A stretch of 64,000 nt of DNA, taken from positions 16,971 through 80,970 of the forward strand of contig JAYPUA010000004.1 in assembly GCA_038133845.1 (NCBI GenBank), given 5' to 3'. Shown here piece after piece: positions 4,278-27,609 of the stretch (its first letter is position 1; every line of letters starts with the position of its first letter). The notes beneath the pieces were generated by a model. That model saw only the letters and a program-made list of their open reading frames with translations. It made no database searches and had not been told where the DNA came from. The position numbers were made by a program, and so were the translations under genes. Source of the DNA: Deltaproteobacteria bacterium. Lineage in GTDB: Bacteria > SAR324 > NAC60-12.

Positions 4278-4412
4278 ACCTTGCCGGAGCTCAGCCACAG
4301 ACCGGAGTGAGCACTTCACGGACTCCCAAATCCGTGAAGGCTCCCTGGTCGAGCTTCGGAAAAGCCGGAGCGCCTCCTCCCGCACTTCAGTCACCTTCGT
4401 CCCTCCGCTTGC

Positions 4413-11428: not shown

Positions 11429-14400
11429 CTACTCCAACTCCCCCTGGATCTGAACAACCGCCTCCTCCAGCGCATTCAGCGTCTCGGGGTTGGCGTCTTC
11501 CCAGAGTTGGCGCTCGTGGGCCTCCAGCAACCGCTGTGCAGCGTCTCGGAGAGCGAGGGGGTTGTGCTCCCGGAAGAAGTGCTGTTGCTCCGGGTCGAGC
11601 AGCAGCTTCTGGGCGACCTCCTCGTACTGGTAATCCGCAACAATGTCGCAGGTCGCATCGTATCCGAACAGGTAGTCCACCGTGGCCGCCATCTCGAAGG
11701 CGCCCTTGTAGCCGTGTTCACGCATCCCGGAGATCCACCTGGGGTTGAGGACGCGGCTGCGAAAAACCCGGTTGAACTCTTCCTTGAGTGTGCGGATCTT
11801 CACCCGATCCGGATTGGCTGAGTCTCCGTGGTAGGTCACCGGAGCCTGTCCCCGCAACTCAGAGACCGCCGCGTGCAGGCCTCCTTGAAACTGGAAGTAG
11901 TCGTCAGAGTCGAGCAGGTCGTGCTCCCGGTTGTCCTGATTCTGGTGCACGATCTCCACAGAGGAGAGCCGGTCTCGGAGCAGGGCGATCTCTTCGCTGC
12001 TGGAACCGTCTGCGCGGTAGGCGTGCCCGCCCCATTTGAGGAAGACCTCCGTCAGGTCTCCCCGCGACTCCCAGGTTCCGGCATCAATGAGCGGAAGCAG
12101 GCCGGTCCCATAGCATCCGGGTCCAGAGCTGAAGACTCGCAGCTCCGCGAGCTGTTCGGCGACCTCTGCGGCGTGACCGGATTGCTTGAGCTGCTGCTGG
12201 TCGCGAAGCCAGGCGGCACGGATCGGGTTCTGGTCTTCCGGCTCATCCAGGGCGGCCAGGCGCTTGGGGATGGTGGCAAGCAGGCGCATCGCCTCTCCAA
12301 AAGCGTCCCGGAACATCCCGGAGACCCGGAGCACCACATCGACCCTCGGGCGTCCAAGCTGTGAGAGCGGGACGATTTCAAAATCGACCACTCTCCCGGA
12401 AACCGGCTCCCAGACCGGCTCACACCCCCAAAGCCAGAGCGCCTGAGCGAGATCATCTCCTCCGGTGCGCATGTTGGATGTTCCCCAGATCACGAGGGCC
12501 AAGGTCCGGGGCCACTCCCCGTGGTCGCTCCGGTAGCGCTCCAGCAGCTCCTCTGCGAGCCGCTGCCCGCACCTCCACGCAGTCTGGGTGGGAATCACCC
12601 GCGGATCAACGGAGTAGAAATTCCGCCCGGTCGGCAGCACATCAACCCGGCCTCGTGTGGGCGCCCCGGAGGGTCCGGGAGCGAGAAACTTTCCGGAGAG
12701 GCCATCCAGCAGCCGCTGCGGTTCCAGGGCGCAGCGTTCCAGACGCGGCAAGAGGGTCTCGTGCAGCCAGCACCGCAGGGTGTGCAGGGCCTCCTTCCGG
12801 GCGACCGGGACATCGACAACGTCTTCAGGCAGCGCCTCCGGAGCCTCCGAGGCCACCCCGCACTCGTACGCCACCCAGCCTCGTGCCTGCTGCTCCACCT
12901 GCTCCCGCTCAGTGATCGAGAGGGTCTCCAGGTCGAAGCTCGAAGGCTGGCCGAGCAGCGCCTGCAGCAGCCCGGGACGCTCCACCGAAGACATCCGGAG
13001 CAGGCTCAGCAGAAAGTCTACTCGACGTGACTCTTGGGGGACCTCTCCAAAGATGTGCAATCCGGAGCGGATCTGGCTCTCCTTCAGCTCGCACAGGTAG
13101 TTGCTGAGCGCATTGAGCCAGTCGTCCTCCTCCGGAAGCTCTTCTCTCCACGGAGCCTCTTCGAGCAGGTGCTCGATCTGATGCTCAAGTTCATGAGCAC
13201 GTTCCGGATAGAGCGTTTCGCAGTGGGCGTGTTCTTCCAGCAACCGCTCGACACGATCCAGCTCATCGTACAACCCAGCCCGGGTGAGCGGCGGCGTGAG
13301 GTGATCGACGATCACTGCAGAGGTCCGACGCTTGGCCTGCGTGCCCTCTCCGGGATCGTTGACAATGAACGGGTACAGGTGCGGCACAGGCCCCAGCACA
13401 GCCTGCGGAAAATCCTCCGGCCCCAGCGCAACGCTTCGTCCGGGCAGCCACTCGAGGTTGCCGTGCTTTCCAAAGTGGATGAGGGCGTGAGCCTGAAAGT
13501 GTGTCCGGATCCAGTGGTAGAACGCGAGGTAGCGCGGGGGAGGGGAGAGTTCCGGGTCGTGGTAGATCGCCTGGGTCTGCAGGCCAAACCCGCGCTGAGG
13601 CTGAATCCCGATGAAGACGTTTCCAAAGCAAATCCCGGAGACCGGAATCGGTGCTTCGGCCAGATCAGAGAGGTCCCACTGCTCCTGCAGGCGCTCACGC
13701 ATGGCCTGAGGGAGTCGGGAGGTGAACTCTCTCAGCTCTGCCGCAGGAACCCACTGGGCGAGCGGTTTGCCGTAGCTCTGCTCTTCGTCATTCGTGATTC
13801 CAGCCTGCAGTTCACGGATTAGCTGATCACCATCTTCCGGAAGCACCCCGACCTCGTAGCCTGCCGCCTTCAGGTGCTGCAGAAACTTCACGACGCTTGC
13901 CGGAGTATCCAGCCCCACCCCGTTTCCCAAGCGGCTGTCATGGTTGGGGTAGTTGGCCATGATGAGAGCAATCCGCTTCTCCGAGTTGGCCAGCTTCCGC
14001 AGCTGCACCCAGTTTCGGGCCAACTCTGCCACGTGAGCGACCTGATCCGGATCCGGGACGACCGCCTTTGCCTGGAACTCCAGCTCCGGGTGAGTCTCCT
14101 GAGCCTCCTTGAACCCCACGACCGTGGTCAGCACGCGACCATCGGTTTCCGGAAGCGCAACCGACATGGCCACGTTGGAAGGGCTCAGGCCCCGCGGATT
14201 CTTCATCCAGGCCTCCCGGTTCTCTGTCGAGGCGATCACCTGCAGGACCGGGCAGCCCAAGGTTTCCAGAAAGGAGACCCGCTCATCCAAGCGACCGATG
14301 GAAAAGCTTTGAAGCGTAAGCACCACATCCGGAGGCTCCAGTTCTGCCCGACGCAACAGCTCCTCCTGCGCTGCAGGCTCGCGCAGAGAGTAGGCATAGA

Positions 14401-14785
14401 ACGCGGAGACCTCGAGCCCGTACGTGGTCAGGGCCTCGGCAAGCGCATCCACCACGGCAAGATCGCCTGTCTGATGCCAGGCTCGATAGAAGGTGATCCA
14501 GACGCGTTGAGGCGGTGAGAGCGTGGGAGGAAAGAGGTCCATGTGTTGAAGTGCTTTTGTGACCATTGTTGTTCTGAGCGTTTTCAGCGCCGCGCCTTGG
14601 CGTGAAGCCATCGAGGTGGGCGGCACTTTCGAGGTGTCGCACAAGGTTTGAATTGTACGGATGTCCGGGGCACCCTGCAACAGGGACGTCGCAAACAACC
14701 TTTCGCATGAATCCGCAGCGTCATGTAGGGCGTTGCGGTCTTTTTGCCTTGCCGGTCGAGTGGTTCTCTCGTATGTTCCGAACAA
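11429..14785 (-). CDS. CobN / Mg-chelatase large-subunit family protein. The N-terminal domain appears absent or degenerate.
   Basis: CobN motifs are present (VWITFYRAWHQTGDLAVVDALAEAL, FGKHGNLEWLPG). The first ~85 codons of the ORF look non-proteinaceous. The recognisable homology begins near MDLFPP, which corresponds to about residue 170-200 of canonical CobN. Confidence 0.65.
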   Translation of the reverse strand: MFGTYERTTRPARQKDRNALHDAADSCERLFATSLLQGAPDIRTIQTLCDTSKVPPTSMASRQGAALKTLRTTMVTKALQHMDLFPPTLSPPQRVWITFYRAWHQTGDLAVVDALAEALTTYGLEVSAFYAYSLREPAAQEELLRRAELEPPDVVLTLQSFSIGRLDERVSFLETLGCPVLQVIASTENREAWMKNPRGLSPSNVAMSVALPETDGRVLTTVVGFKEAQETHPELEFQAKAVVPDPDQVAHVAELARNWVQLRKLANSEKRIALIMANYPNHDSRLGNGVGLDTPASVVKFLQHLKAAGYEVGVLPEDGDQLIRELQAGITNDEEQSYGKPLAQWVPAAELREFTSRLPQAMRERLQEQWDLSDLAEAPIPVSGICFGNVFIGIQPQRGFGLQTQAIYHDPELSPPPRYLAFYHWIRTHFQAHALIHFGKHGNLEWLPGRSVALGPEDFPQAVLGPVPHLYPFIVNDPGEGTQAKRRTSAVIVDHLTPPLTRAGLYDELDRVERLLEEHAHCETLYPERAHELEHQIEHLLEEAPWREELPEEDDWLNALSNYLCELKESQIRSGLHIFGEVPQESRRVDFLLSLLRMSSVERPGLLQALLGQPSSFDLETLSITEREQVEQQARGWVAYECGVASEAPEALPEDVVDVPVARKEALHTLRCWLHETLLPRLERCALEPQRLLDGLSGKFLAPGPSGAPTRGRVDVLPTGRNFYSVDPRVIPTQTAWRCGQRLAEELLERYRSDHGEWPRTLALVIWGTSNMRTGGDDLAQALWLWGCEPVWEPVSGRVVDFEIVPLSQLGRPRVDVVLRVSGMFRDAFGEAMRLLATIPKRLAALDEPEDQNPIRAAWLRDQQQLKQSGHAAEVAEQLAELRVFSSGPGCYGTGLLPLIDAGTWESRGDLTEVFLKWGGHAYRADGSSSEEIALLRDRLSSVEIVHQNQDNREHDLLDSDDYFQFQGGLHAAVSELRGQAPVTYHGDSANPDRVKIRTLKEEFNRVFRSRVLNPRWISGMREHGYKGAFEMAATVDYLFGYDATCDIVADYQYEEVAQKLLLDPEQQHFFREHNPLALRDAAQRLLEAHERQLWEDANPETLNALEEAVVQIQGELE

Positions 14786-14950
14786 GCTGGGGCTCTGGAA
14801 TCACCCTGAACCCTGGCGCGTTTCCTGAGTCCCCAAAGAGCCCCCCCAATGCCATGGGGCAGCTGCCGATCGCAGAGTGCGAGAGTACCCCTTGGCAGGC
14901 TCCAAATTCAAGCACGGGAACAGGAGAAACTCCATTGTGAAAAAAGCTTC

Positions 14951-15526
14951 ATGGCATCGAAGAAGTTCGCGTCAGTATATCAGGTAAAGGCTACTCTAGA
15001 CTACATTCGGCCTCCAATTTGGAGGCGGTTTCAGGTGCCCAGCCACATCACTCTGTATGATCTGCACAGAGTTCTGCAAGTTGTGATGGGGTGGGAGGAT
15101 GCACACTTGCATCAATTCATAATTCAAGGGCAATTTTTTGGACTTCCTGAAGATGACATACTTGACGAGGAGATTATTGATGAACGCAAAGTGACGCTCA
15201 ATCAGATCCTGGTTCAGGAGAAGATGAAATTCAAATATGAGTACGACTTTGGGGACAGCTGGTCCCACACAATCCTGGTTGAAAAAATCCTGGAACCAGA
15301 GAAGGGTGTCCTCTACCCTGTGTGTCTGAAAGGAAAACGCAACTGTCCACCGGAAGACTGCGGTGGTGCTCCTGGATACGACTACTTGCTTGAGGTCTTG
15401 AAGAGGCCCGAAAGCAAGGAGTACAAGCAGTACAAGGAGTGGCTCGGCGAGCCTTTTGACTCGGAAGAGTTTGACCTCCAGGAGATCAACAAAGCTCTCA
15501 AAAAAATCCGCAAAAAAATCTCATAA
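14951..15526 (+). CDS. Plasmid pRiA4b ORF-3-like family protein (PF07929-like).
   Basis: IRPPIWRRFQVPSHITLYDLHRVLQVVMGWEDAHLHQF matches the family core. Local GC drops to about 48%. Confidence 0.6.
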   Translation: MASKKFASVYQVKATLDYIRPPIWRRFQVPSHITLYDLHRVLQVVMGWEDAHLHQFIIQGQFFGLPEDDILDEEIIDERKVTLNQILVQEKMKFKYEYDFGDSWSHTILVEKILEPEKGVLYPVCLKGKRNCPPEDCGGAPGYDYLLEVLKRPESKEYKQYKEWLGEPFDSEEFDLQEINKALKKIRKKIS

Positions 15527-15780: not shown

Positions 15781-16179
15781 ATGCCGAAGCGAGCGATGAG
15801 CAGGATTCTGATACAGCTGTTGTTGGCTTCAGCACTCCTGTGTCCCTGGCCCACTCAGGCCGCACCACCGCAGGTGGGTGACCGAGTTGAAGGAGGCGTG
15901 TTCCTTTACAGGGAAGCCGTCGAGAGGTACTGGAACGACTGGGTCGGCTTTCCGCTGATGACGGACACGGCTTCGGCAACTCGTCAGGCTCGGTTGACGA
16001 TCGTGGGGGAGGGAAAAACAGCCCTGTTTATCGGAAATCTGAGCATCAACTGTGAGAGCGGGAAGTCTTTTTGGGAGAGCGCCGGAAGTCATTCGGAGTT
16101 CCTCTCAAGCGAAGAGGACGCCCGGAAGCTCGTCCCGGCTCCGGCTCTCCGCAATGCGGCACGGCTGTTCTGTGAGTGA
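15781..16179 (+). CDS. Secreted hypothetical protein.
   Basis: Signal peptide MSRILIQLLLASALLCPWPTQA. No recognisable domain. Confidence 0.4.
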   Translation: MPKRAMSRILIQLLLASALLCPWPTQAAPPQVGDRVEGGVFLYREAVERYWNDWVGFPLMTDTASATRQARLTIVGEGKTALFIGNLSINCESGKSFWESAGSHSEFLSSEEDARKLVPAPALRNAARLFCE

Positions 16180-16226
16180 GCGCAAAACCGGGAGCTCGGA
16201 AGCTCCCCGGCCAAGCACTCCAAGAC

Positions 16227-16354
16227 CGGGCAACGTGATTTTGCTCAACGGAGCCTCCAGTTCGGGCAAGTCAACACTGGCCCAAGATCTTCAAGCGAGG
16301 CTGGACGAGCCGTTCTGGCACTTTTCAATCGACCATCTGATCGCCCCAATATGA
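16227..16354 (+). pseudogene. N-terminal remnant of a chloramphenicol-phosphotransferase-like (CPT / zeta-toxin-like) P-loop kinase.
   Basis: VILLNGASSSGKSTLAQDLQARLDEPFWHFSIDHLI parallels the CPT N-terminus MIILNGGSSAGKS...LPEPWLAFGVDSLI, then stops after about 42 codons. The rest of the kinase is absent. Confidence 0.45.
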
Positions 16355-16445
16355 TTTGCGATTTCTTCGAGAACGGTATCTGTCAAGGCCGTTAAAACTC
16401 AAAGAAATCATCGTGCAAAAATTGGACTGCCCTCTCGAGTGGTCT

Positions 16446-17087
16446 TCAGGGCACAGGAATCGCTGAGATGAAGTCTTGGTAGTATGGCTGGTGGAACTCC
16501 CCCAGCAGGCGGGTCAACTCCGTCAGTGGGTCCGGATGGTCATCGACACGCAGGTTGCACCAAGGGAACGGTTGTTCCCGGATGGTCAGCAGCGCGGCAG
16601 ACTGTCGCCCCCTGCGGTCGCCTCCCGCCTCCTCTCCGGAGCGCAGGGCCCGAAGCAAACGCACCTCCAAGGCCATCCCGGAAGAGGCCTTCAAAGAGTT
16701 GACACAGGCGTCGACCACCTCGGGACCTGCCAGCAGATTTCCTGCAACGCTGTAATCCTCTCCTCCTTGATGTCCGGCCCAACCCTGGGCCTTAGCCCCG
16801 GTCCAAGCCCAGGACCTTCCGGAGGCATCCACGCCATGCACCTGCCGTGCGGGGGCTTCTGCATCCTGTGCCAACTCTTCCTCCAGCGCGGTCCTGATGT
16901 CTGCTCCGGAAGCCACTCGCTCCAGCCCCTGCAGCCCCAAGTGAGGATTCGTGGAGGCCTGGGTGGCAATGGCTCCCACTCTGGAGCGCAGGTGGGGGAC
17001 CAGCGCTCCTACGGCAAAGTGTCTCGTTGCGACCGCAACGCCAAAGTGATTCCGCTCCGGGTCTCGGAGGACAATGGAATAGGTCAT
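16446..17087 (-). CDS. DUF1028 family protein (Ntn-hydrolase-like).
   Basis: MTYSIVLRDPERNHFGVAVATRHFAVGALVPH matches the DUF1028 N-terminus; the Thr after Met is a possible Ntn nucleophile. The ORF-track start at 17144 is TTG; the ATG is at 17087. Confidence 0.65.
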   Translation of the reverse strand: MTYSIVLRDPERNHFGVAVATRHFAVGALVPHLRSRVGAIATQASTNPHLGLQGLERVASGADIRTALEEELAQDAEAPARQVHGVDASGRSWAWTGAKAQGWAGHQGGEDYSVAGNLLAGPEVVDACVNSLKASSGMALEVRLLRALRSGEEAGGDRRGRQSAALLTIREQPFPWCNLRVDDHPDPLTELTRLLGEFHQPYYQDFISAIPVP

Positions 17088-17113
17088 CAGGCTGCCTCGT
17101 TCAGGTTTTCTTA

Positions 17114-17162
17114 AATTTATCATGATAAATTGTTGACACCGCAAAATTTATCATGATAAATT
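17114..17162. promoter_or_regulatory. Two copies of a perfect 18-bp palindrome AATTTATCATGATAAATT (17114-17131 and 17145-17162) bracketing a -35-like TTGACA (17133-17138).
   Basis: The repeats are read directly from the sequence. Spacing: -35 TTGACA, 17 bp, then ATAAAT at 17156-17161. They lie in the divergent promoter between the DUF1028 gene and the SBP gene. Confidence 0.5.
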
Positions 17163-17214
17163 CACGATGTTGCCGCAAGAGGGCACTCTATCCCCACTCT
17201 CTTTGGAGATGAAT

Positions 17215-18780
17215 ATGATGAAAAAAGCTTTCCAGCGGCTGCTGCTTGCGAGCGCAGCCTTGCTCAGCTTTGGGCCGATGGCACACGCTGCTACCCCAAA
17301 GGACGTCCTGGTGGTCGCCCAGATCGCTGAACCGAAGTCCATGGATCCGCACACGGTCACGGCCGTGAACGACTTCCGAATCCTGATGAACGTGTATGAC
17401 GGACTGGTTCGCTATCGCAGCGGAACCCTGGAGGTCGAGCCCGGACTCGCCGAGTCCTGGGAGATCAGTGATGATGGCCGAGTATATACGTTCTCCCTGC
17501 GCCGCGGGATTCAGTTCCACGACGGCACCCCGTTCAACGCGGAGGCTGTCAAGTTCAACTTTGATCGGATGTTGGTCAAGGACCACCCCTTCGCAGAAAC
17601 CGGGCCATTTCCGCTCTCGTTCTTCTTCTCCGCCATCAAGGAGACCACGGTTGTCGATGAGCACACGGTGCGGTTCCGCATGGACGACCCGTACGCCCCG
17701 CTGCTCTCCAACCTGGCTTACCCGACAGGCCTGATCCTCTCTCCGGCCGCAGTGCGCAAGCACGGCAAGGACGTTGGGCGGAATCCCGCAGGAACCGGGC
17801 CGTTTCGCTTCCGGGAATGGAAGAGCAACCAGCATGTGATCCTGGACCGCAACGACAACTACTGGGACGGACGTCCCGGACTGAAGTCCGTGGTCTTCCG
17901 CCCGATCACCGACGCGAACACCCGGGTCGCCGAGATGCTTTCCGGTGGCATCGACCTGATGGTCGAAGTTCCTCCGGACAATGTGGCCACCTTCGCCTCA
18001 AACAGCAAATACGCTCTGCACGAGCAGGCCGGACCGCACCTCTGGTTCCTGATCCTCAACCTCAAGGAGGGCCCGCTGCAGGACAAGCGCGTGCGCCAAG
18101 CGCTGAACTATGCCATCGACAAGAAGGCCCTCGTGGAGAACGTGCTTCAGAACACCGCCACGGTCGCCAGTGGCCCGACGCCTGCCGCGTTCTCCTGGGC
18201 CTACAACGACTCGCTCCAGCCCTACCCGCATGATCCGGGCAAGGCTCGAGAGTTGATCCGAGCCGCAGGTGCCGAGGGCGCCACGCTGACCTTCTACGTC
18301 ACCGAGGGCGGCTCCGGGATGCTGGATCCGATCCCGATGGGCACCGCGATTCAGGCGGACCTGAAGGCCGTCGGCCTGAACGTAAAGATCGAGACCTACG
18401 AGTGGAACACCTTCCTGGGCAAGGTGAACCCGGGGCTTGCCGGAAAGGCCGACATGGCCGAGATGGCGTGGATGACGAATGATCCGGACACCCTGCCCTT
18501 CCTCGCCCTGCGCACCGCAGCCTGGCCGGATCAAGGCGGATTCAACTCCGGCTACTACTCGAATCCTCAGGTGGACGAGTTGCTGGAGCAGGCTCGGGTG
18601 AGCACCAGTCAGACCGTTCGTGCCGCGCTCTACAAGGAGATGCAGCGGATCGTGTACGAAGACGCACCGTGGGTTTTCGTGGCCAACTGGAAACAGAACG
18701 CGGTCACCGGAAGCAGCGTGCAAAACTTCGGGCTGGAGCCTTCCTTCCTGCTGTTGCTTCACAAAGTCAGCAAGAACTGA
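17215..18780 (+). CDS. ABC transporter substrate-binding protein, family 5 (DppA/OppA-like).
   Basis: Signal peptide MMKKAFQRLLLASAALLSFGPMAHA. GGAG lies 6 nt upstream of the ATG at 17215. The product is about 520 aa with the SBP_bac_5 architecture. Confidence 0.85.
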   Translation: MMKKAFQRLLLASAALLSFGPMAHAATPKDVLVVAQIAEPKSMDPHTVTAVNDFRILMNVYDGLVRYRSGTLEVEPGLAESWEISDDGRVYTFSLRRGIQFHDGTPFNAEAVKFNFDRMLVKDHPFAETGPFPLSFFFSAIKETTVVDEHTVRFRMDDPYAPLLSNLAYPTGLILSPAAVRKHGKDVGRNPAGTGPFRFREWKSNQHVILDRNDNYWDGRPGLKSVVFRPITDANTRVAEMLSGGIDLMVEVPPDNVATFASNSKYALHEQAGPHLWFLILNLKEGPLQDKRVRQALNYAIDKKALVENVLQNTATVASGPTPAAFSWAYNDSLQPYPHDPGKARELIRAAGAEGATLTFYVTEGGSGMLDPIPMGTAIQADLKAVGLNVKIETYEWNTFLGKVNPGLAGKADMAEMAWMTNDPDTLPFLALRTAAWPDQGGFNSGYYSNPQVDELLEQARVSTSQTVRAALYKEMQRIVYEDAPWVFVANWKQNAVTGSSVQNFGLEPSFLLLLHKVSKN

Positions 18781-18844
18781 CTGGTCCTCCGGAGGCTCCT
18801 CTCTCCGAGGACCTCCGGATTTTTCCCCAGGACTCCCTCTGCCC

Positions 18845-19801
18845 ATGCTGCGCTACACGCTTCATCGCCTGCTGTTGACCCTCCCGGTGCTCTTCGGCAT
18901 CTCCGTGGTGGTCTTCCTGATCATGGCGCTGATTCCCGGAGATCCGGCCACCGCAATTCTTGGAGCGTTTGCCACTCCGGAGAACGCGGCAAAACTGCGT
19001 GCGGAGCTGGGGCTGGATCGTCCGCTGGTGGAGCAGTACTTCACCTGGGCCGGGAACCTGCTTTCCGGAGACTTCGGGCGCAGCTATGCCCTCAACCGTC
19101 CGGTGCTGGACGAGCTGCTGGAGCGGCTCGGCCCAACCCTCTTGCTGGCCGGATCTGCACTCCTGCTCTGTGTGATGCTGGGAGTGGTCTCTGGACTGCT
19201 GGCAGCAGTGAAGCAATACACCTGGGTCGATCAGGCCCTGACGCTGTTCACGCTGCTGGGCATCTCGGCGCCTTCGTTCTGGCTGGGGCTGATGGCGGTG
19301 TCCTTGTTTGCCGTCCAGTGGGGCTGGCTCCCAGCAAGCGGGATGTACACCCCATATGGAGATGAGAGCTTCTCCGATCTCTTTCAGCATCTGCTGATGC
19401 CTGCCGTGACGCTGGGGCTTGTGGCCTCCAGCGTGATCGCCCGCTTGACCCGAACGAGCATGCTGGAGCAGCTCCGTCAGGACTACGTCCGGACTGCCCG
19501 GGCCAAGGGAGAGCGCGAAACGGCAGTGGTGCTCAAGCACGCCTTCCGGAACGCGCTGGTTGGCCTGGTTCCTGTTCTGGGGCTGCAGGCCGGCTTTGTG
19601 CTGGGCGGCGCCGTCTACATCGAAACGGTTTTTCAGTGGCCAGGCATTGGGCGGATGCTGGTCAACGCGATCTCGACCCGCGACATCCTGCTCGTTCAGG
19701 GCGGAGTGATGATGGTCGCAACACTCTACGTGCTGCTCAACCTTTTGGCCGATCTGCTTCAGCATGCGCTCGACCCTCGCATTCAGCAAGGCCATGCCTG
19801 A
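18845..19801 (+). CDS. ABC transporter permease (DppB/OppB-like).
   Basis: MLRYTLHRLLLTLPVLFGISVVVFLIMALIPGDPA is a canonical DppB N-terminus. Confidence 0.85.
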   Translation: MLRYTLHRLLLTLPVLFGISVVVFLIMALIPGDPATAILGAFATPENAAKLRAELGLDRPLVEQYFTWAGNLLSGDFGRSYALNRPVLDELLERLGPTLLLAGSALLLCVMLGVVSGLLAAVKQYTWVDQALTLFTLLGISAPSFWLGLMAVSLFAVQWGWLPASGMYTPYGDESFSDLFQHLLMPAVTLGLVASSVIARLTRTSMLEQLRQDYVRTARAKGERETAVVLKHAFRNALVGLVPVLGLQAGFVLGGAVYIETVFQWPGIGRMLVNAISTRDILLVQGGVMMVATLYVLLNLLADLLQHALDPRIQQGHA

Positions 19802-21713
19802 GGGTTCCTCTCCTGCCCGGGAGTTCTGGCAGCGGCTGAACCGCAACCGGCTGAGCACCTTTGGCCTGATCATGCTCGCCCTGTTCGGAGTCCTGTGCCT
19901 GCTGACGCCTTGGCTCTCCCTCCCTGATCCGGATGCGACCAATCTGGCCAACCGCCTCAAACCCCCGCTGCATCCCGAGCACTGGCTTGGAACGGACGAG
20001 TTGGGCAGAGACCTGCTCTCCCGCCTGCTCTGGGGAACCCGGGTCAGCTTGGCCGTCGGCTTTGTCGCGACCTTCGCGGCGGCCGTGATTGGCAGCACCA
20101 TTGGGCTGGTTTCCGGCTACTTTCAAGGCTGGGTCGACAGCCTGCTGATGCGCGTGGTGGACACCCTGATGGCCTTCCCGTACATGCTGCTGGCGCTGGC
20201 GATTGTCGCTGCGTTTGGTCCGGGACTGCTCAACGCTCTGCTGGCGATCGCCATTGTCAACGTCCCGTTCTTCGCACGAACCATCCGCGGCGCAACGGTC
20301 TCTCTGGCAAGGCGGGAGTTCGTGCTCGCCGCACGCCTGGGCGGTGCCAGTCATGCCGAGGTGCTGTGGCGGGAGCTGCTTCCCAACATCCTTCCGGTGA
20401 TTGTGGTCACGATCTCCACCACAGCAGGCTGGATGATTTTGGAAACTGCCGGGCTGAGCTTTCTTGGGCTCGGGGCCCAGCCTCCCACTGCAGACCTCGG
20501 TTCCATGCTTGGAGAAGGGCGCAAGCTGCTCTTCACCGCACCACACGTTTCAACCATTCCGGGGCTGGTGATCCTGGTGCTGGTGATTTCCCTGAACCTG
20601 CTCGGAGATGGAGTCCGGGATGTGCTGGATCCCCGCCTGCGGGGAGGGGCACTACGGAGCCCTCAGGCACGCACGGAAATTCAGCGAAACGCTTCCCCCA
20701 AGCCGGGGAACGCGGACTCCGGGAAGCTGGTTGTCCGGAGCCTGACCACGGAGCTGCTGCAGCATGGGAAGGGACAGCCTCTGGTGCGCGGGGTGGACTT
20801 TGCGTTGAGACCAGGAGAATGCCTGGGCCTGGTAGGCGAATCCGGATGCGGGAAGTCGGTGACCGCGCTGTCTCTCTCGGCGCTGGCGGCTTCGCCTCCG
20901 CTGCGGATTACCTCCGGAGTGGTGGAACTGGAAGGGCAGGATCTGCTGGGGCTCCCGCTTTCGTTGCTGCAGGACCTGCGGGGCAAGCGTGTGTCCTACA
21001 TCTTCCAGGACCCGTTGGCCACGCTGAATCCGGTGCTGACCATTGGCGAGCAGCTACTGCAGGTCATCCGGCGGCACCAGCCCGTCACCGAGGCTCAGGC
21101 CCGAACTCAGGCGCTGGAGTTGCTGCGCCAAGTCCGCATTCCTTTCCCGGAATCTCGCCTGAGCGCTTACCCACACCAGCTCTCTGGAGGCATGCGACAG
21201 CGTGTGTGCATTGCGATTGCGCTGGCCAACCGTCCGGATGTGCTGATTGCCGATGAACCCACAACGGCGCTGGACGTCACCATTCAGGCGGAGATCCTCG
21301 CGCTGCTGAATGAGCTGCGTCGCGACTCCTCAAGTCCGGAGCGCCAAGGTACCTCCGGACTCTCGGTGCTGTTCATAACACACGACCTGGGGGTGGTCTC
21401 CACGCTGTGTGAACGGGTCGCCGTGATGTACGCCGGAGAAATCGTGGAGCTTGGAGAGACGCACTCGGTGCTGGAGGCTCCGGAGCATCCGTACACCCAG
21501 GCACTGCTCCGCTGCACCCCACGTCTTGGCTCGGGAGATCGGCTCTCTGGAGGAATTCCCGGAACCCCTCCAACTCCTGGCGCCTTCCCAAGCGGGTGTG
21601 GCTTTGCCACGCGCTGCGAGCGGGCCTCCGCTCAATGCGAACGTCCGGTCACCTTGCGCACCATGGTCTCCGGAAGGCAGGTGCGCTGTGTCCTCGCGGA
21701 GGAGCATGCCTGA
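19795..21713 (+). CDS. Fused ABC permease (DppC-like) and ATP-binding domain (DppD-like).
   Basis: The N-terminal ~300 aa have the DppC motif [17 protein letters not shown]. The C-terminal ~330 aa have Walker A GESGCGKS, signature LSGGMRQRV and Walker [12 protein letters not shown]. The ATG overlaps the dppB-like stop. Confidence 0.8.
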
Positions 21714-22674
21714 CGCTCTTCTTGAGCTGGAGCAGGTGAGCAAGGAGTTTGTGCTCCACCGCAGCGGCTGGACCCAGCGGGCGACCACCTTCCGTGCTGT
21801 CAACCAGGTGAGCTGGAAGGTGCATCCGGGAGAGGCGCTGGGAGTTGTGGGAGAGTCCGGGTGCGGGAAGTCGACGGTGGCCCGCATGGCGGTTGGCCTG
21901 GAGCCGCCGACCTCCGGAACGATCCGCTTCAAGGGGAAGCCGCTGTCCACATGGCTTGAGCAGGATCCGCAGACGCTGCGACGCTCCGTGCAGATGGTCT
22001 TTCAGGATCCGGCTGGCTCGCTCAACCCGCGCCAGCGCATTCGAGAGATCCTGGATCTGCAGCTCAAACGGTTGACGCGCTTGGGCCCGGAGCAGCGCCG
22101 CCAGCGCATCCGAGAAGTGCTGCAGCAGGTACAGCTCCCGGAGTCGACACTGGAGCGCTTCCCGCACGAATTCTCCGGAGGTCAGGCGCAACGGATCAGC
22201 ATCGCACGGGCGCTGGTCTCCTTGCCGGAGCTGCTGCTGCTCGATGAGCCGGTTTCGGCGCTGGATGTCTCGGTGCAGGCTCAGATTCTGCTGCTGCTGG
22301 AGAACATGCGGCAGGAGCTTGGAGTCGCTTACGTCTTCATCAGCCATGACCTGGCGGTGGTGGAACAGTTGTGTCCGAACACGGTCGTCATGTATGCCGG
22401 TGCCGTCGCCGAACAAGGCCCCACGGAGCGGCTCTTTCGACACCGCCGTCACCCGTACACGGACCTGTTGGTCCGCAGCGTGCCGGTCCCGGGGACCCCG
22501 CTTCAGCTGAAAACCCAGGGTTCCGGCGAGGTTGAGGTCTTGCCCGGATGCTCGTTTCGCAACCGCTGTCCCCGGGCTTCGGAGACCTGTGCTCAGGTTC
22601 CGGAGCTACAGCCGGTTTCCGAAACATCCCCGCACTTATCTGCCTGCCACTATCCACTTGACGAGGACGTGTGA
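21706..22674 (+). CDS. ABC transporter ATP-binding protein (DppF/OppF-like).
   Basis: Walker [10 protein letters not shown], signature FSGGQAQRI and Walker B LLLDEPVSALD. Confidence 0.85.
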   Translation: MPDALLELEQVSKEFVLHRSGWTQRATTFRAVNQVSWKVHPGEALGVVGESGCGKSTVARMAVGLEPPTSGTIRFKGKPLSTWLEQDPQTLRRSVQMVFQDPAGSLNPRQRIREILDLQLKRLTRLGPEQRRQRIREVLQQVQLPESTLERFPHEFSGGQAQRISIARALVSLPELLLLDEPVSALDVSVQAQILLLLENMRQELGVAYVFISHDLAVVEQLCPNTVVMYAGAVAEQGPTERLFRHRRHPYTDLLVRSVPVPGTPLQLKTQGSGEVEVLPGCSFRNRCPRASETCAQVPELQPVSETSPHLSACHYPLDEDV

Positions 22675-23717
22675 ACCAATCGGACTCCTTTCTGCTGGAA
22701 ACGCTCAGGGAGCTGATGCGTATCCCCAGCCCGAGCGGTCGGACCGAGGAGGTCGCTGCCTGGACCTCGGAGCTGCTCCGGAGCTGGGGGCTGTCTCCGG
22801 AGCCGACGCGTCGGGGGGCGCTCAAGCTGCGGCTTCCCGGAGCCGACGCCACACGTGCTCGCGCCCTGACGTCGCACTTGGACACGCTCGGGGCGATGGT
22901 CCGGCATCTCAAGGACAACGGACGCTGTGCCCTGGCCTCCGTCGGCACCTGGTCCAGTCGTTTTGCCGAAGGCGCCCGCGTCACGCTGCACACGGACTCC
23001 GGAGATCTCCGGGGGACGATCCTGCCGCTGCTGGCCTCAGGACACGCCTACAACGAGAAGGTCGATCAGCAGCCTGTGAGCTGGGATCAGTTGGAATTGC
23101 GTATCGATGAACGCTGCGACAGCCGCTCAGACCTGCAGACCCTGGGGGTGCAGCCCGGAGACTTTGTCTCCGTCGACACCGGGACGGAGGTCCTGGAGAA
23201 CGGATTCATCTTCTCGCGGCACCTTGATGACAAGGCCGGAGTAGCGGCGATGCTGAATGCGATCCGGCAAATTGTGCAGGAGCAGTGTCCCCTCCCCTGC
23301 ACCACCGACCTCATCTTCACAGTCCGTGAGGAGCTGGGAGACGGAGGAGCCGCGGTGCTCACCCCAGAAGTCTGGGAATTGGTCACCATTGACAACGGCG
23401 TGCAGGCCGGGACCCAACACTCTCGGGAGTTTGGCGTCACCCTGGCCATGGGAGACAAGACGGGGCCCTTCGACCGGAGGCTGATCCGGCATCTGGAGCA
23501 GCTCTGCCGTGAGCACGGCCTGGCGCATCAGCGCGACCTCTTCCGGCACTACCGCTCGGACCTCGCCGCTGCCGTTGAGGCCGGATATGACGTCCGGACC
23601 GCCCTGATCGCCATCGGGCTGGACGGAAGCCACGGGCACGAACGCACCCACCTGGATGCGATCCGAACCGCCTCAGAACTGGCCCGGCTGTACCTGCTTT
23701 CTCCTCTGCTGGACTGA
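22671..23717 (+). CDS. M42 family metallopeptidase (glutamyl-aminopeptidase / CelM-like).
   Basis: GTG start overlaps the dppF-like stop. Motifs SHLDTLGAMV and HLDDKAGVAAM are present, with M42 architecture. Confidence 0.75.
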   Translation: MNQSDSFLLETLRELMRIPSPSGRTEEVAAWTSELLRSWGLSPEPTRRGALKLRLPGADATRARALTSHLDTLGAMVRHLKDNGRCALASVGTWSSRFAEGARVTLHTDSGDLRGTILPLLASGHAYNEKVDQQPVSWDQLELRIDERCDSRSDLQTLGVQPGDFVSVDTGTEVLENGFIFSRHLDDKAGVAAMLNAIRQIVQEQCPLPCTTDLIFTVREELGDGGAAVLTPEVWELVTIDNGVQAGTQHSREFGVTLAMGDKTGPFDRRLIRHLEQLCREHGLAHQRDLFRHYRSDLAAAVEAGYDVRTALIAIGLDGSHGHERTHLDAIRTASELARLYLLSPLLD

Positions 23718-23723
23718 GTTCGC

Positions 23724-24953
23724 ATGCTGAGAATCGACGGATCCCGCCTCTGGCGCAGTTTGATGGAACTGGCTCAAATCGGCGCAACTCCTGAAGGAGG
23801 GGTCGCCCGTGTTGCGCTCAGTGAGGAGGACCGTCAGGCGCGAGACCTCCTCCGGAAATGGGCCGAGCCGCTTGTGGATGAGGTTCATGTGGACGAGGTC
23901 GGGAACCTGTTCTTCCTCCGCCATGGGCTGGACCCGGAAGCCCCAATGGTTCTCACCGGCAGCCACCTGGATACCCAGATTCACGGAGGGCGCTTTGACG
24001 GCGCCTTTGGGGTCATGGCCGGCCTGGAGGTGCTCCAGACTCTGGCCGATGCAAAGCGCCGTCTCTCCTGTGGGGTGGGGCTGGTTTGCTGGACCAACGA
24101 GGAAGAGGCCCGCTACTGTCCCGCAATGGGGTCGGCGGTGTTTGTAGGCAAGCAGGATCCGGAGACCGCCTGGGCCTGCATCGGGACGGATGGCAGCGTC
24201 TTTGGAGAGCAGCTGGAACACATCGGATATCGTGGATCGCGGTGGCCGCTGAGGATTCACTCTTACTTGGAAGCCCACATCGAGCAAGGTCCGGTGCTTG
24301 AGCAGGAGGGGCTGGAGGTCGGGGTGGTCACCGGAGCACAGGGCCAGGTCGCCCTGGATGTTGAAATTCATGGTGAGGCCGGACACTCCGGAACCGTCCC
24401 CATGCCCCTGCGTCATGATGCAATGGCCTGTGCCACCGAGGCAACCCAGGCCTGCCGTCACCTGGTTCTGCAGGAGGGGCGGGGAGTCTTCACAGTCGGC
24501 TTCTTCACCATGGAGCCCAATTCCCGTACGACCATCCCCAACCAGGTCCGCCTGGGCATCGACCTGCGTCACCCGGATTCGTCCTCGCTCGACCAGCTCA
24601 AGGCAGAGCTGACTTGCACCCTTCAGGAGATCGCCCAGACCCACGGATGCCGGCTGGAAGTCCGTGTGCTGTTCCAGAAGGAGCCCGTGGTGTTTGACAC
24701 GCGCTGCATTCAGGCGGTTCAGATTGCAACGGATCAGCTCCAGTACTCCTCACGCACCATGGCCTCCGGAGCGTTCCACGACGCCTGCCTGGTCGCCACA
24801 ATTGCCCCCACCGGAATGATCTTTGTTCCCAGCCAGCACGGAATCAGTCATAATCCCACAGAATACTCTTCGCCTGAACAGTTGGAGCGCGGGGGCAACG
24901 TTCTGTTGCACGCGCTCCTGCAACTCGCCGAGAGCATTCCCAATACGTCATGA
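23724..24953 (+). CDS. M20 family amidohydrolase (allantoate amidohydrolase / N-carbamoyl-L-amino-acid hydrolase-like).
   Basis: GSHLDTQIHGGRFDG and WTNEEEARY motifs; about 410 aa. Confidence 0.75.
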   Translation: MLRIDGSRLWRSLMELAQIGATPEGGVARVALSEEDRQARDLLRKWAEPLVDEVHVDEVGNLFFLRHGLDPEAPMVLTGSHLDTQIHGGRFDGAFGVMAGLEVLQTLADAKRRLSCGVGLVCWTNEEEARYCPAMGSAVFVGKQDPETAWACIGTDGSVFGEQLEHIGYRGSRWPLRIHSYLEAHIEQGPVLEQEGLEVGVVTGAQGQVALDVEIHGEAGHSGTVPMPLRHDAMACATEATQACRHLVLQEGRGVFTVGFFTMEPNSRTTIPNQVRLGIDLRHPDSSSLDQLKAELTCTLQEIAQTHGCRLEVRVLFQKEPVVFDTRCIQAVQIATDQLQYSSRTMASGAFHDACLVATIAPTGMIFVPSQHGISHNPTEYSSPEQLERGGNVLLHALLQLAESIPNTS

Positions 24954-25690
24954 CTGAAGACCTCTCGAAGAACTCGCGCAAGCGCTCGGACCTGGTTGCC
25001 GAGCAAATCAAGGAAGACATCATCACCAAGCGGCTCCCTCCGGGAGAGCGGCTGTCTGATGAGAAGGACTTCCTGAAGACCTACCGAGTGAGCAAGGGGA
25101 CCATGCGGGAAGCCTTGAAGGCTCTGGAAGTGCAGGGGCTGGTCAATATTCGCACCGGGCCTGGAGGAGGAGCCTCGGTCTCTCGAGTGAGTGCCGAGAA
25201 GGCCAACGAGTTGCTCTGGAACTACTTCTTCTCCCGGAATGTCTCCATCGAGGACATCTACGCTGTCCGCAAACTGGTCGAACCGGAACTGGCGGCCAAC
25301 GTTGCGCAGCACCTTGACGAAGAAGACCTCGCGCTCCTGGAGCAGTCCGTCGGACACTGCTCGATCAAGGGTTTTGAGTCCAACGACCGGGCCCAGCGGA
25401 TTCAGGAACTCGACTTCCACCTCGTCCTTGCAGACGCCTGTCCGAACCCGGTCCTTTCCTTCTTTGCCAAGTTCATCCTCAGCCTGCTCGCCCGGATCAT
25501 CATCCATGAGGACATGACTCCGGATCCGCAGATCAGCGAGCGCCACAGCCAGCAAGGGCTGGACTACCATCAGGCCCTTCTCCAGGCATTCCGGGCCCGC
25601 GACCCGGAAAGTGCCCGGCAGGTCATGATCGAACACATGGAGGCTGCCGAGTCTTTCATGCTGCAAAATTACTACTCCCCTGCTCGCTGA
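24950..25690 (+). CDS. GntR-family transcriptional regulator, FadR/FCD subfamily.
   Basis: N-terminal wHTH (LPPGERLSDEKDFLKTYRVSKGTMREALKALEVQGLV) plus a C-terminal FCD domain. The start overlaps the M20 stop (ATGA). Confidence 0.85.
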   Translation: MTEDLSKNSRKRSDLVAEQIKEDIITKRLPPGERLSDEKDFLKTYRVSKGTMREALKALEVQGLVNIRTGPGGGASVSRVSAEKANELLWNYFFSRNVSIEDIYAVRKLVEPELAANVAQHLDEEDLALLEQSVGHCSIKGFESNDRAQRIQELDFHLVLADACPNPVLSFFAKFILSLLARIIIHEDMTPDPQISERHSQQGLDYHQALLQAFRARDPESARQVMIEHMEAAESFMLQNYYSPAR

Positions 25691-26283: not shown

Positions 26284-26459
26284 CCTCCCTGCCAAGCCCG
26301 GACTCCTGAGCTTCTCGGCCTCCAAACAGCCTGGGAGTCCTGCCCTTCTTCCCTTGAAGTCCCCCGCCCTCTGTTGATGAGCCAAACCGGGGCCTTCCCC
26401 CTTGTTTGTTTTTGACAAAGTAACCTCCCGCTACGAGACATTTTTCATAAAAATTATTT

Positions 26460-26577
26460 TTTGATTAAATTTCCCGTGAGTTTTCCCTCATCCTCCTTGT
26501 TCGATAAATTGGAAATTTTTTGATTTTTAGTAAATTTATTTGATTTAATCAAAATTATTCACTAAATTGAACAAAGG
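26460..26577. promoter_or_regulatory. AT-rich promoter module B, upstream of the rhodanese-YeeE operon. Paralogous to module A.
   Basis: Same conserved blocks as module A, plus the near-palindrome TTGATTTAATCAA. Confidence 0.4.
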
Positions 26578-26631
26578 TTCGCTCCGGTTGTTCCGGGGCA
26601 AGGTTTCCAACCCTCGTTGAGAGAGATTGTG

Positions 26632-27609
26632 ATGAAGTCGAAACTGTGGGGACTGCTCCCTTTCCTGCTGCTGTTCATGGCCACCGGAGCTCAGGCCGAG
26701 TTTTTCCAGCAGCCCCTCCTCTCGCCTCTGGAGTTGCACCGCCTCCAAGAGCAGCACCCGGAAGGCATTACGGTGGTGGACATCAGGCCACTGGAGCACA
26801 AGGTCCCCGAGGCGTCCTATACGGCAGGGCACATTCCGGAGTCCGTCTCTTCACCGTACGCAACCTGGCGCGGGCAGCCTGAAAATCCGGGGAAGATGGT
26901 GACTGTGGACAAACTCACCTGGCTGGTTCAGGCGTTGGGTGTGGAGCAGGATACTCCGGTGGTGGTGGTCCACCGGGGGGACTCTCCCAGCGATTTTGGT
27001 GCCGCAGCACGGGTGTACTGGTCGCTCAAGACCGCTGGACTGAGGGAGTTGGCGATTCTGGACGGAGGCTTTCAGGCGTGGCAGCAGGCCGGACTGCCGA
27101 TCTCCACGGAGGCACACACGGCGTTGCCCAGCGACTACGAAGTCCAGTTGAAGACAGCCTGGCTGGCTACCACTGCGGACATTGAGCAGTTGCTCAGTAG
27201 GTCCGAGGTTCAGTTGCTTGATGCGCGTCCGGAGGCTTTTTTTTGGGGAGAAAAATGGCATGGTGCTGCTGCACGTCCGGGAACGATCGCCGGAGCCGAG
27301 TTCTTTGACAACCACCGCTGGTTCCAACCGGAGAGCCCCTTGCTCGAACCCCCGGAGCGGCTGCGCAATTTGGTCCAGGAGCACCAGCTGGGACATTCAG
27401 AGGTGACGGTCTCCTTCTGCAACACAGGACACTGGGCGGCAACCAACTGGTTCGTACTCAGTGAGTTGCTCGGAGTGGAAGGGGTGAAGCTCTATCCGGA
27501 GTCGCTGGTCGAATGGTCCTCTGCCGGGCTCCCCATGGATCACGTCCCGGGAAGCCTGCGCTGGGCCTGGATTTCGACGCGGCAGTGGCTGAACGCTCAG
27601 TTCAACTGA
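26632..27609 (+). CDS. Periplasmic tandem-rhodanese sulfurtransferase.
   Basis: Signal peptide MKSKLWGLLPFLLLFMATGAQA, two rhodanese-like halves and an active-site Cys in CNTGHWAA. Confidence 0.8.
   Translation: MKSKLWGLLPFLLLFMATGAQAEFFQQPLLSPLELHRLQEQHPEGITVVDIRPLEHKVPEASYTAGHIPESVSSPYATWRGQPENPGKMVTVDKLTWLVQALGVEQDTPVVVVHRGDSPSDFGAAARVYWSLKTAGLRELAILDGGFQAWQQAGLPISTEAHTALPSDYEVQLKTAWLATTADIEQLLSRSEVQLLDARPEAFFWGEKWHGAAARPGTIAGAEFFDNHRWFQPESPLLEPPERLRNLVQEHQLGHSEVTVSFCNTGHWAATNWFVLSELLGVEGVKLYPESLVEWSSAGLPMDHVPGSLRWAWISTRQWLNAQFN

Follow-up and report, generated by a model that had tools for sequence, protein, structure and literature searches.

Twin palindromic boxes between a DUF1028 gene and a Dpp-like transporter operon, probable operators of a linked FadR-subfamily GntR regulator

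The locus and its genes

We analysed a stretch of 64,000 nucleotides from a Deltaproteobacteria bacterium (GTDB lineage SAR324; contig JAYPUA010000004.1, positions 16,971 to 80,970 of the forward strand), called the window below. All coordinates are those of the window. The subject is a short intergenic region in which the same 18-bp palindrome occurs twice. It separates a gene for a DUF1028 protein from a divergent operon that encodes a Dpp-like transporter, an M42 peptidase, an M20 amidase and a GntR/FCD regulator. Comparison with related loci, cited by labels (L001 and so on) where they must be told apart, suggests that the two palindromes are probably the operators of this regulator.

The DUF1028 gene lies on the minus strand (16446-17087; 213 aa; PF06267, 230.8 bits) and is transcribed away from the palindromes. 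The sole relative of this family in the PDB, 2IMH, is annotated as a hypothetical protein. On the plus strand, the first gene of the operon encodes a family-5 (Dpp/Opp-type) solute-binding protein (SBP) at 17215-18780 (PF00496, SBP_bac_5, 341 bits). It reaches no NCBIfam equivalog at its cutoff, and it is 63-93% identical to the orthologues in related loci. Next come the other components of the ATP-binding cassette (ABC) transporter. These are a DppB-like permease (about 18845-19801, start chosen from the translation; BPD_transp_1 and BPD_transp_1_N), a fused DppC-DppD-like permease-ATPase (19764-21713; OppC_N, BPD_transp_1, ABC_tran and oligo_HPY) and a second, DppF-like ATPase (about 21706-22674; ABC_tran and oligo_HPY), whose start was inferred from an 8-nt overlap in the closest relative, L001.

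The next gene, at 22671-23717, encodes an M42 peptidase of the equivalog TIGR03106 (473.6 bits against a cutoff of 397.75), which is named for an osmoprotectant system of N-acetylglutaminylglutamine amide (NAGGN). The protein is 52% identical to the Sinorhizobium meliloti pSymB copy annotated as part of the NAGGN system. It is followed at 23724-24953 by an M20 amidase of the hydantoinase/carbamoylase family (TIGR01879, 399 bits against a cutoff of 204), a homologue of which also accompanies DUF1028 in alphaproteobacterial and Vibrio loci.

The last gene of the operon, at 24950-25690, encodes the regulator. It has a GntR domain at residues 16-72 (PF00392, 45.9 bits, cutoff 27) and an FCD domain at residues 102-231 (PF07729, 80.2 bits, cutoff 24.3). 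This combination of a GntR winged helix-turn-helix with FCD is the one that defines the FadR subfamily, to which the protein is assigned by its domains. The stop codon of the M20 gene and the start codon of the regulator gene overlap as ATGA, and promoter-like or terminator-like sites inside the operon occur at chance frequency, so the regulator is most likely co-transcribed from the promoter that bears the palindromes. The Pfam domains bear out the gene calls of a preliminary description of this DNA, which had placed DUF1028 on the minus strand and the SBP and GntR/FCD genes on the plus strand.

Two identical palindromes

The sequence AATTTATCATGATAAATT is found at 17114-17131 (box 1) and at 17145-17162 (box 2). 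Each copy is a perfect 18-bp palindrome made of two half-sites, ATTTAT and ATAAAT, with 10 bp from centre to centre and the four bases CATG in the middle. The two boxes are 31 bp apart, measured either from start to start or from centre to centre. These positions and this distance had been given in the preliminary description, and a pattern search reproduced them. The direct repeat common to both copies extends to 19 nt (17113-17131 and 17144-17162). Together with flanking bases, the copies make up a 23-nt inverted repeat that is 91% complementary.

No further match to AATTTATCATGATAAATT was found in the window, with up to 3 mismatches allowed, and none of 100 dinucleotide-preserving shuffles yielded any match. 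For the relaxed pattern ATTTATN4ATAAAT, 0.09 occurrences are expected by chance.

A third candidate site, ATTTATTTGATTTAAT at 26534-26549 (2 mismatches), was rejected. It is non-palindromic, belongs to an AT-rich spacer that precedes a rhodanese gene and was taken as a chance match. The spacer itself (26420-26630) is a 200-nt AT-rich intergenic region, in a genome of 61% GC, upstream of the rhodanese-domain gene at 26617-27609. Besides this weak match to the box pattern it holds short repeats (TTTTTTGATT...).

Promoter architecture

The predicted promoter of the SBP operon is interleaved with the boxes. Its -35 hexamer, TTGACA, lies at 17133-17138 on the plus strand, and one base separates it from box 1. 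Its extended -10, TGATAAATT, lies at 17154-17162 on the same strand, inside box 2, with the TG at 17154-55 and TAAATT at 17157-62, after a spacer of 18 nt. In a promoter scan, TTGACA-18-TAAATT with the upstream TG scored 10 of 12 matches and was the sole sigma-70-like site in 16900-17400, where 0.3 are expected. By its -35, a spacer within 16-18 nt, A2 and T6 of the -10 and the TG, the site reads as a sigma-70 promoter of the extended -10 type.

The earlier reading that box 1 abuts TTGACA thus stands, and so does the location of the -10 inside box 2. The register of that -10 had been set one base off. The hexamer then proposed, ATAAAT (17156-17161, 17-nt spacer), agrees with TATAAT at only 3 of 6 positions. 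The arrangement is common among relatives. We found TTGAC(A/G/C) at 17-18 nt upstream of the box-2 TAAATN in 44 of 52 non-redundant orthologous regions. L005 has the same TAAATT hexamer as the window, but with a 17-nt spacer.

As for the opposite direction, the symmetry of the palindrome gives a candidate extended -10 for the DUF1028 promoter, TGATAAATT at 17114-17122 on the minus strand, inside box 1. Alphaproteobacterial loci have a mirror-image promoter directed at DUF1028, TTGCAA/T-17-TAAATN, whose -10 falls in box 1, and control of DUF1028 by the boxes is well supported there by sequence. In the window, such control is plausible, since an extended -10 at 17122-17114 would lie under box 1, ahead of a leader of 20 nt that has GAGG as its ribosome-binding site.

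Read outward, both strands of each palindrome give TGATAAAT. Each box could therefore serve as the extended -10 of a promoter facing away from the pair. This dual role would explain a variable distance between the boxes alongside constant distances between -35 and -10. The box spacing in orthologues ranges over 27-31 bp, with 27 bp in 40 regions, followed by 28, 29, 30 and 31. It would also explain why boxes with asymmetric centres mirror each other (L181 and L207), which fits one box per outward-facing promoter. The double constraint, as operator and as -10, possibly explains the strong conservation of the operator as well.

A distance of 31 bp is about three helical turns, and 27 bp is about 2.6. 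The three-turn spacing of the preliminary description accordingly holds for the window clade and not for the orthologues, most of which have 27 bp.

The assignment of promoters is ambiguous in Vibrio loci, where the outward -35 matches are poor. The scan there returned a promoter TTGACC-16-TATCAT, whose -10 falls within one box and which lies upstream of the other.

A small hairpin, TGCC...GGCA, was observed at 17171-17185, where the predicted 5' leader of the SBP transcript begins. It extends to GTTGCC...GGCAAC in relatives and is conserved, with a variable loop, in L001, L055, L125 and L126; it is not present in the AT-rich SAR324 loci. This may be an mRNA-stabilising stem.

Conservation of the boxes

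The closest relative, L001 (GntR 82% identical), has the gene order of the window and two boxes 31 bp apart. A group of marine metagenome loci (L005-L010, GntR 70% identical) lacks the DUF1028 and M42 genes, and its upstream region is far more AT-rich. These loci retain both boxes at a distance of 30 bp; TTGACA stands between the copies, and 17 nt separate it from TAAATT. When seven such regions are aligned, little besides the two boxes and TTGAC is invariant ahead of the ribosome-binding site, and the flanks diverge. Box 1 is unchanging in the alignment of the window clade.

A scan of 185,579 species genomes for two copies of the 12-mer core, TTATCATGATAA-N(5-35)-TTATCATGATAA, gave 110 stretches, which were sorted by tblastn with the window proteins. 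In more than half (59 of 110), the pair occupies precisely the gap between a DUF1028 gene and an orthologous SBP gene. Their hosts are Roseobacter-group genera, Kiloniella, Pelagibius, Roseibium, Rhizobiaceae, Maritalea, a Chromatiales symbiont and metagenome-assembled genomes (MAGs) labelled SAR324 or "Deltaproteobacteria". Another 19, from Vibrio and Photobacterium, have a divergent GntR/FCD gene on one side and, on the other, an operon for an M20 amidase, a transporter of the DcuC/YfcC type and DUF1028. The 78 matches in cluster context come from one assembly each. The remaining 32 are unrelated to the cluster.

A second set of loci was selected by protein similarity only. A metagenome scan based on an alignment of five SBP orthologues gave 80 loci with 69-91% identity, 73 of them with at least 200 nt of upstream sequence. 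When up to 2 mismatches to the 12-mer core are allowed, 36 of these 73 have two boxes, about 15 have one and 22 have none, against a background rate of 11 matches per 286 kb. The consensus of this set is AATTTATCATGATAAATT, including flanking positions that were not used in the selection. It is identical to box 1, and the window therefore carries two perfect copies of the consensus.

Variation among the boxes is concentrated in the middle, where the half-sites ATTTAT and ATAAAT are kept and the four central bases vary. Most loci have CATG. Other centres are GCTG/CAGC (L135, L138 and L181), TATA (several loci, including a Nitratireductor plasmid), CATT/CATC (a Klebsiella plasmid) and GCGT/ACGC (an Enterobacteriaceae plasmid). 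Judged by these comparative data, the boxes are a real regulatory element, kept at one place in dozens of marine and soil bacteria that are only distantly related.

Four of the box-less SBP orthologues (L132, L133, L137 and L140) share another upstream sequence, ..CCTGTATCCAA..GCGTGCTACGCTTT..GGCACAACCGGCAAGAC.. (at about 2800-3000). No DUF1028 or M20 homologue was detected within the flanks covered at these loci. The shared sequence may be another regulatory element for the same transporter.

The regulator that accompanies the boxes

An orthologue of the GntR/FCD regulator was seen with the boxes in six gene orders, and in every locus that reaches far enough. It is the last gene of the SBP operon in the window, L001 and L005, and in the alphaproteobacterial loci L016, L033, L050, L054, L060, L068, L075, L079 and L087. 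The same holds for plasmids of S. meliloti, Klebsiella, Nitratireductor and Enterobacteriaceae (L123 and L205-L207). In L053, L090 and L121, a Salipiger plasmid, it stands beside DUF1028, and in Vibrio (L014) it is divergent from the boxes. In L209 it is the first gene of a GntR-M20-DUF1028 operon that faces the SBP operon, with a single box in front of the regulator gene itself. In Ferruginivarius (L208), M20 faces a DUF1028-SBP-...-GntR operon. The sixth order is a long operon with M42 and M20 before GntR.

No other regulator gene recurs with the boxes across these arrangements. In the protein-selected set, boxes are present at all 11 loci that show the GntR gene, which was seen at none of the 22 loci that lack them; this count covers flanks of 3 kb, short of the operon ends. 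The suggestion in the preliminary description that the protein at 24950-25690 could be the cognate regulator is well in line with this linkage.

The orthologues are just 32-40% identical overall to the window protein. The predicted recognition helix is near-invariant, (S/A/G)(K/R)(G/S)T(I/V/M/L)RE, with T, R and E invariant. The wing, GPxGG, is conserved too, its G, P and GG without exception. These comparisons cover 34 distinct aligned sequences and three further plasmid orthologues. The near-invariant helix matches the near-invariant operator. No covariation was found between the centre of the box and the helix, as boxes with the centres CATG, TATA, CATT/CATC and GCGT/ACGC share essentially one helix. 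This suggests that the centre is not directly read by the regulator.

One of the plasmid loci, L205 (Klebsiella michiganensis plasmid pKOXM1B, 7418-17270), has the whole cassette between two copies of IS26, beside a mer operon. It holds DUF1028, twin boxes with the centres CATT/CATC, the SBP-ABC operon, GntR and an M42 peptidase of the NAGGN type. Its DUF1028 gene has just 432 bp (about 144 aa), against 213 aa in the window. The IS26-flanked cassette is also found on Enterobacter hormaechei plasmids; the carriers are conjugative plasmids of clinical and soil Enterobacteriaceae. Escherichia coli was rejected as a carrier, its matches being limited to the IS26 ends.

Proposed mechanism and alternatives

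We propose, with good confidence, that the twin palindromes are operators of the FadR-subfamily GntR protein encoded at 24950-25690. One GntR dimer would bind each box through the half-sites ATTTAT and ATAAAT. Box 2 covers the predicted extended -10 of the SBP-ABC-M42-M20-GntR operon, and box 1 abuts its -35 and probably contains the -10 of DUF1028. A dimer on each box would block the -10 and -35 regions and so exclude RNA polymerase from both promoters. With its gene co-transcribed with the target operon, the regulator would exert negative autoregulation. Binding of an effector to the FCD domain would free the repressor and induce uptake and hydrolysis. The effector would most likely be the transported compound or an intermediate of its hydrolysis, possibly related to NAGGN. 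Binding, repression as its direction and the identity of the effector are what we infer from the arrangement.

The layout agrees with the two-site repressor scheme of the preliminary description, with boxes that overlap the -10 and abut or overlap the -35, are conserved at one promoter and have diverged flanks; binding is again the predicted part. The system would most likely be of a standard bacterial kind, made of a repressor, twin operators and a divergent promoter, with a non-canonical motif and a wide distribution.

Several observations weigh against this proposal or narrow it. The assignment of the regulator is built on gene linkage and not on resemblance of the motif, as the boxes have neither the GT/AC core nor the N2-3 spacing that mark nearly all FadR-subfamily operators. 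The boxes are themselves good -10-like sequences (TAAATT, TATCAT), and part of their conservation may reflect promoter function. Control of both sides, as described earlier, finds its backing for DUF1028 in the alphaproteobacterial mirror-image promoter and is weaker in the window. The leftward -35 of the window clade is poor (TTGCGG, with a 19-nt spacer), the window scan called no leftward promoter, and co-regulation of DUF1028 there is plausible but less secure. A spacing range of 27-31 bp means that binding on the same face of the helix is no conserved feature, so cooperative binding is not to be assumed. The genome scan demanded exact 12-mers, which inflates the apparent conservation and which the protein-selected set corrects. 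The 22 box-less loci in that set indicate that this control is not universal for the transporter.

The linked GntR protein might bind the boxes and activate, or repress one promoter and activate the other, which we consider unlikely. FadR-family proteins are known to activate too, as E. coli FadR does at fabA and fabB, and the ambiguous Vibrio promoter and the poor outward -35s would suit such a role. The geometry speaks for repression. In the window and in the 44 of 52 regions noted above, box 2 sits over the -10, with box 1 in contact or overlap with a -35 close to consensus. This placement is typical of occlusion and does not permit class I or class II activation. Moreover, a promoter with TTGACA and an extended -10 needs no activator. 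Still less probable, in our judgement, is that an unlinked DNA-binding protein reads the boxes, either Fur/Zur-like or another global regulator of AT-rich palindromes, and that GntR acts elsewhere or has no role here. Such a factor would fit the departure from the canonical FadR-family core, and each half of a box contains TGATAA/TTATCA, found in Fur-type boxes too. Consensus sites were slid over 17088-17215 on both strands, and none fitted better than shuffled sequence. The best match to the Fur box GATAATGATAATCATTATC has mismatches at 8 of 19 positions and that to its 7-1-7 form TGATAATNATTATCA at 5 of 14, with about half of the shuffles as good. For CRP (TGTGA-N6-TCACA) the mismatches are 3 of 10 and for LexA (CTGT-N8-ACAG) 4 of 8, and the Zur and HutC-type sites gave the same outcome. 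The motif is therefore not Fur-, LexA- or CRP-like, as had been noted before. It also travels with one cluster over SAR324-like MAGs, Alpha- and Gammaproteobacteria, with one assembly per match, which is unexpected for a global regulator with many targets, and GntR is the only regulator gene that accompanies it in all arrangements.

Two further explanations dispense with a dedicated regulator. The boxes might be kept merely as core elements of a compact bidirectional promoter. Each box has TAAATT with an upstream TG, as well as TATCAT, on both strands, and it is the -35/-10 distance that is conserved and not the distance between boxes. A -10, though, needs 6-9 bp, and what is conserved here is a symmetric element of 16-18 bp that includes the half averted from the promoter and the flanking AAT/ATT. 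Boxes also occur singly before the regulator gene (L209), both half-sites are kept around differing centres, and the presence of boxes tracks the presence of the GntR gene. Taken together, these points make the explanation very improbable. Finally, the inverted repeat might be a structural or mobile element, such as an RNA hairpin, a terminator, a cruciform or the remnant of a miniature transposon. If transcribed, the boxes can pair into a long hairpin (-30.1 kcal/mol, z = -3.6), and an Rfam scan of 16000-19000 returned two sub-threshold miRNA-like hairpin matches on the inverted repeat and nothing else. No Rfam family reached its threshold there, the predicted hairpin is upstream of the predicted transcription start, and both flanking genes start at the repeat and none ends there, leaving nothing to terminate. 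Nor is the repeat dispersed; dispersal is what the preliminary description had named as speaking against an operator. There are two copies in 64 kb, and all 78 cluster-context genomes have them at the same promoter. We give this last idea hardly any credence.

A possible pathway

All arrangements share an invariant core of DUF1028, an M20 amidase of the carbamoylase type, GntR and a transporter, which is an ABC system or, in Vibrio, of the DcuC/YfcC type. By its composition, this core looks like uptake and degradation, not synthesis.

A link to NAGGN is offered by the M42 peptidase and by S. meliloti. The pSymB plasmid of this species has an orthologous operon with degenerate boxes, AATCATGATAAATT and ATTTATCGTTATAAAT, upstream. 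Its gene order is SBP, permease, permease/ATPase, ATPase and GntR, followed directly by asnO (NAGGN amidotransferase) and ngg (synthetase), with an M42 gene nearby. A tblastn search with S. meliloti AsnO and Ngg gave no match in the window or in the other loci fetched. The known NAGGN clusters (S. meliloti SMb20481-82 and Pseudomonas aeruginosa PA3459-61) combine asnO-ngg with an M42 peptidase, whereas the window has M42 alone of these. The P. aeruginosa synthesis cluster PA3459-61 is repressed by the MarR-type PA3458 (PMC8070244), and the window regulator is of the GntR type. SMb20478, a gene of this S. meliloti cluster, is mentioned only as a "dipeptide ABC transporter" (PMC3687685).

The cluster could tentatively be read as an uptake-and-hydrolysis system for NAGGN or a similar peptide blocked at its N- and C-terminus, which we offer as a lead and not as a finding. 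A wider version, possible though doubtful to the same degree, is that a cross-phylum cassette, with operators that double as mirror-image -10s, governs an undescribed route of uptake and breakdown of NAGGN or a close relative. Removal of the three blocking or peptide bonds would then fall to DUF1028, M20 and M42, and the regulator would detect the compound itself or an intermediate.

The regulon unites DUF1028, which has no known function, with an M20 amidase of the carbamoylase type and a Dpp-like transporter that is highly conserved, and the twin-box switch is a handle on this uncharacterised pathway. From the link to a NAGGN peptidase follows a concrete hypothesis on what DUF1028 does and on what becomes of an osmolyte that is widespread in bacteria. 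Experiments are feasible, as the cassette is present in culturable Vibrio, in Roseobacter-group bacteria and on Klebsiella and Enterobacter plasmids.

Neighbouring genes and other occurrences of the core motif

Beyond the DUF1028 gene, the window has a CobN/Mg-chelatase gene on the minus strand (11429-14785; 1118 aa) and a pRiA4b ORF-3-like gene on the plus strand (14849-15526). L001 has MlaA and MlaC there instead, and synteny with this closest relative stops at the DUF1028 gene.

The 12-mer TTATCATGATAA was also found in 2-4 tandem copies with a period of 30-32 nt, mostly 31-32, and a unit that is typically GATTATCATGATAAT..AAAGTnnnACTTTG. These arrays lie up to about 100 nt upstream of a gene for an AAA_14 and DUF4143 ATPase (about 380 aa), or overlap its start. 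They occur in L011, L018, L023, L024, L027, L029, L039, L056, L058, L062, L081, L099, L111 and L113; in L029, for example, the array is at 3537-3643 and the gene at 3675-4814. The hosts are Bacteroidota, 'Deltaproteobacteria' MAGs, Obscuribacterales, Fibrobacteria and Akkermansia, and the arrays are unrelated to the GntR system. They may form a conserved operator array of those ATPases.

Two Thermococcaceae MAGs (L019 at 4287-4337 and L105 at 13-102) have two to three copies of GTTATCATGATAAC with a 39-nt period. The repeats lie directly upstream of a pair of genes for a HEPN protein (109 aa) and a nucleotidyltransferase (214 aa), a pair that resembles a HEPN/MNT toxin-antitoxin module.

Comparison with known systems

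The window regulator has the winged helix-turn-helix and FCD architecture common to FadR, PdhR, LldR, GlcC, UxuR/ExuR and DgoR. By sequence, its closest relatives of solved structure are NanR (6on4, E = 2e-18), PdhR and other FCD proteins. In terms of NCBIfam, it reaches no equivalog, and the best model is the NanR subfamily (104 bits against a cutoff of 260). The wing reads GPxGG in the window orthologues and HGK in FadR. The residue presumed, from an alignment with E. coli FadR, to be equivalent to its Arg45 is Lys in all aligned orthologues but one, from Nitratireductor, which has Arg.

Like canonical FadR-type operator pairs, the boxes are AT-rich palindromes over the promoter of a catabolic operon or divergon, in an often autoregulated arrangement. 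The operator consensus of the subfamily is TKGT-N(2-3)-ACMA, and double sites in divergons are common (PMC4494728). The boxes do not match this consensus. They read TTAT-N4-ATAA, with no GT...AC and with N4 instead of N2-3, which amounts to a change of G to A (C to T) in each half and one extra central base. The only near-match to the canonical core, TTGTTGACAC (1 mismatch), was tried and rejected. It falls in the spacer, over the -35; matches as good turned up in about 200 of 1000 shuffles, and its G is not conserved in L055 or L005.

A search of the accessible literature and of the supplements to PMC4494728, the chief comparative work on GntR motifs, gave no description of the motif TATCATGATA or of the regulon; RegPrecise was outside this search. 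The orthologous group of GntR/FadR proteins thus appears undescribed, and it would offer a clean, testable pair of regulator and operator.

The closest published motif, on sequence, is the box of BioR, a FadR-subfamily repressor of biotin genes in Alphaproteobacteria, which reads TTATMKATAA (PMC4494728, PMC4554459) and is itself an exception within the subfamily (PMC4494728). BioR often has two tandem boxes and autoregulation at its own gene, verified by gel shift and reporter assays (PMC4494728, PMC4554459). The shared features are a FadR-subfamily regulator, TTAT/ATAA half-sites, paired boxes and a box before the regulator gene. The half-site pattern TTATNNNNATAA matches with 0 mismatches at 17117 and 17148, which was equalled by 3 of 1000 shuffles. 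The BioR 10-mer TTATMKATAA itself gave a best match of 3 mismatches in the region of the boxes, no better than chance. The two motifs differ in their centre, which has 2 nt in the BioR box (10 bp) and 4 nt in the window box (a 12-bp core, 18 bp in total). They differ in their targets as well, which are biotin synthesis and transport for BioR and the DUF1028, peptide ABC transporter and peptidase cluster for the window regulator. The system described here would thus be a second FadR-type case, after BioR, that reads TTAT/ATAA half-sites at another spacing, and it should be useful for models of the specificity code of this very large family.

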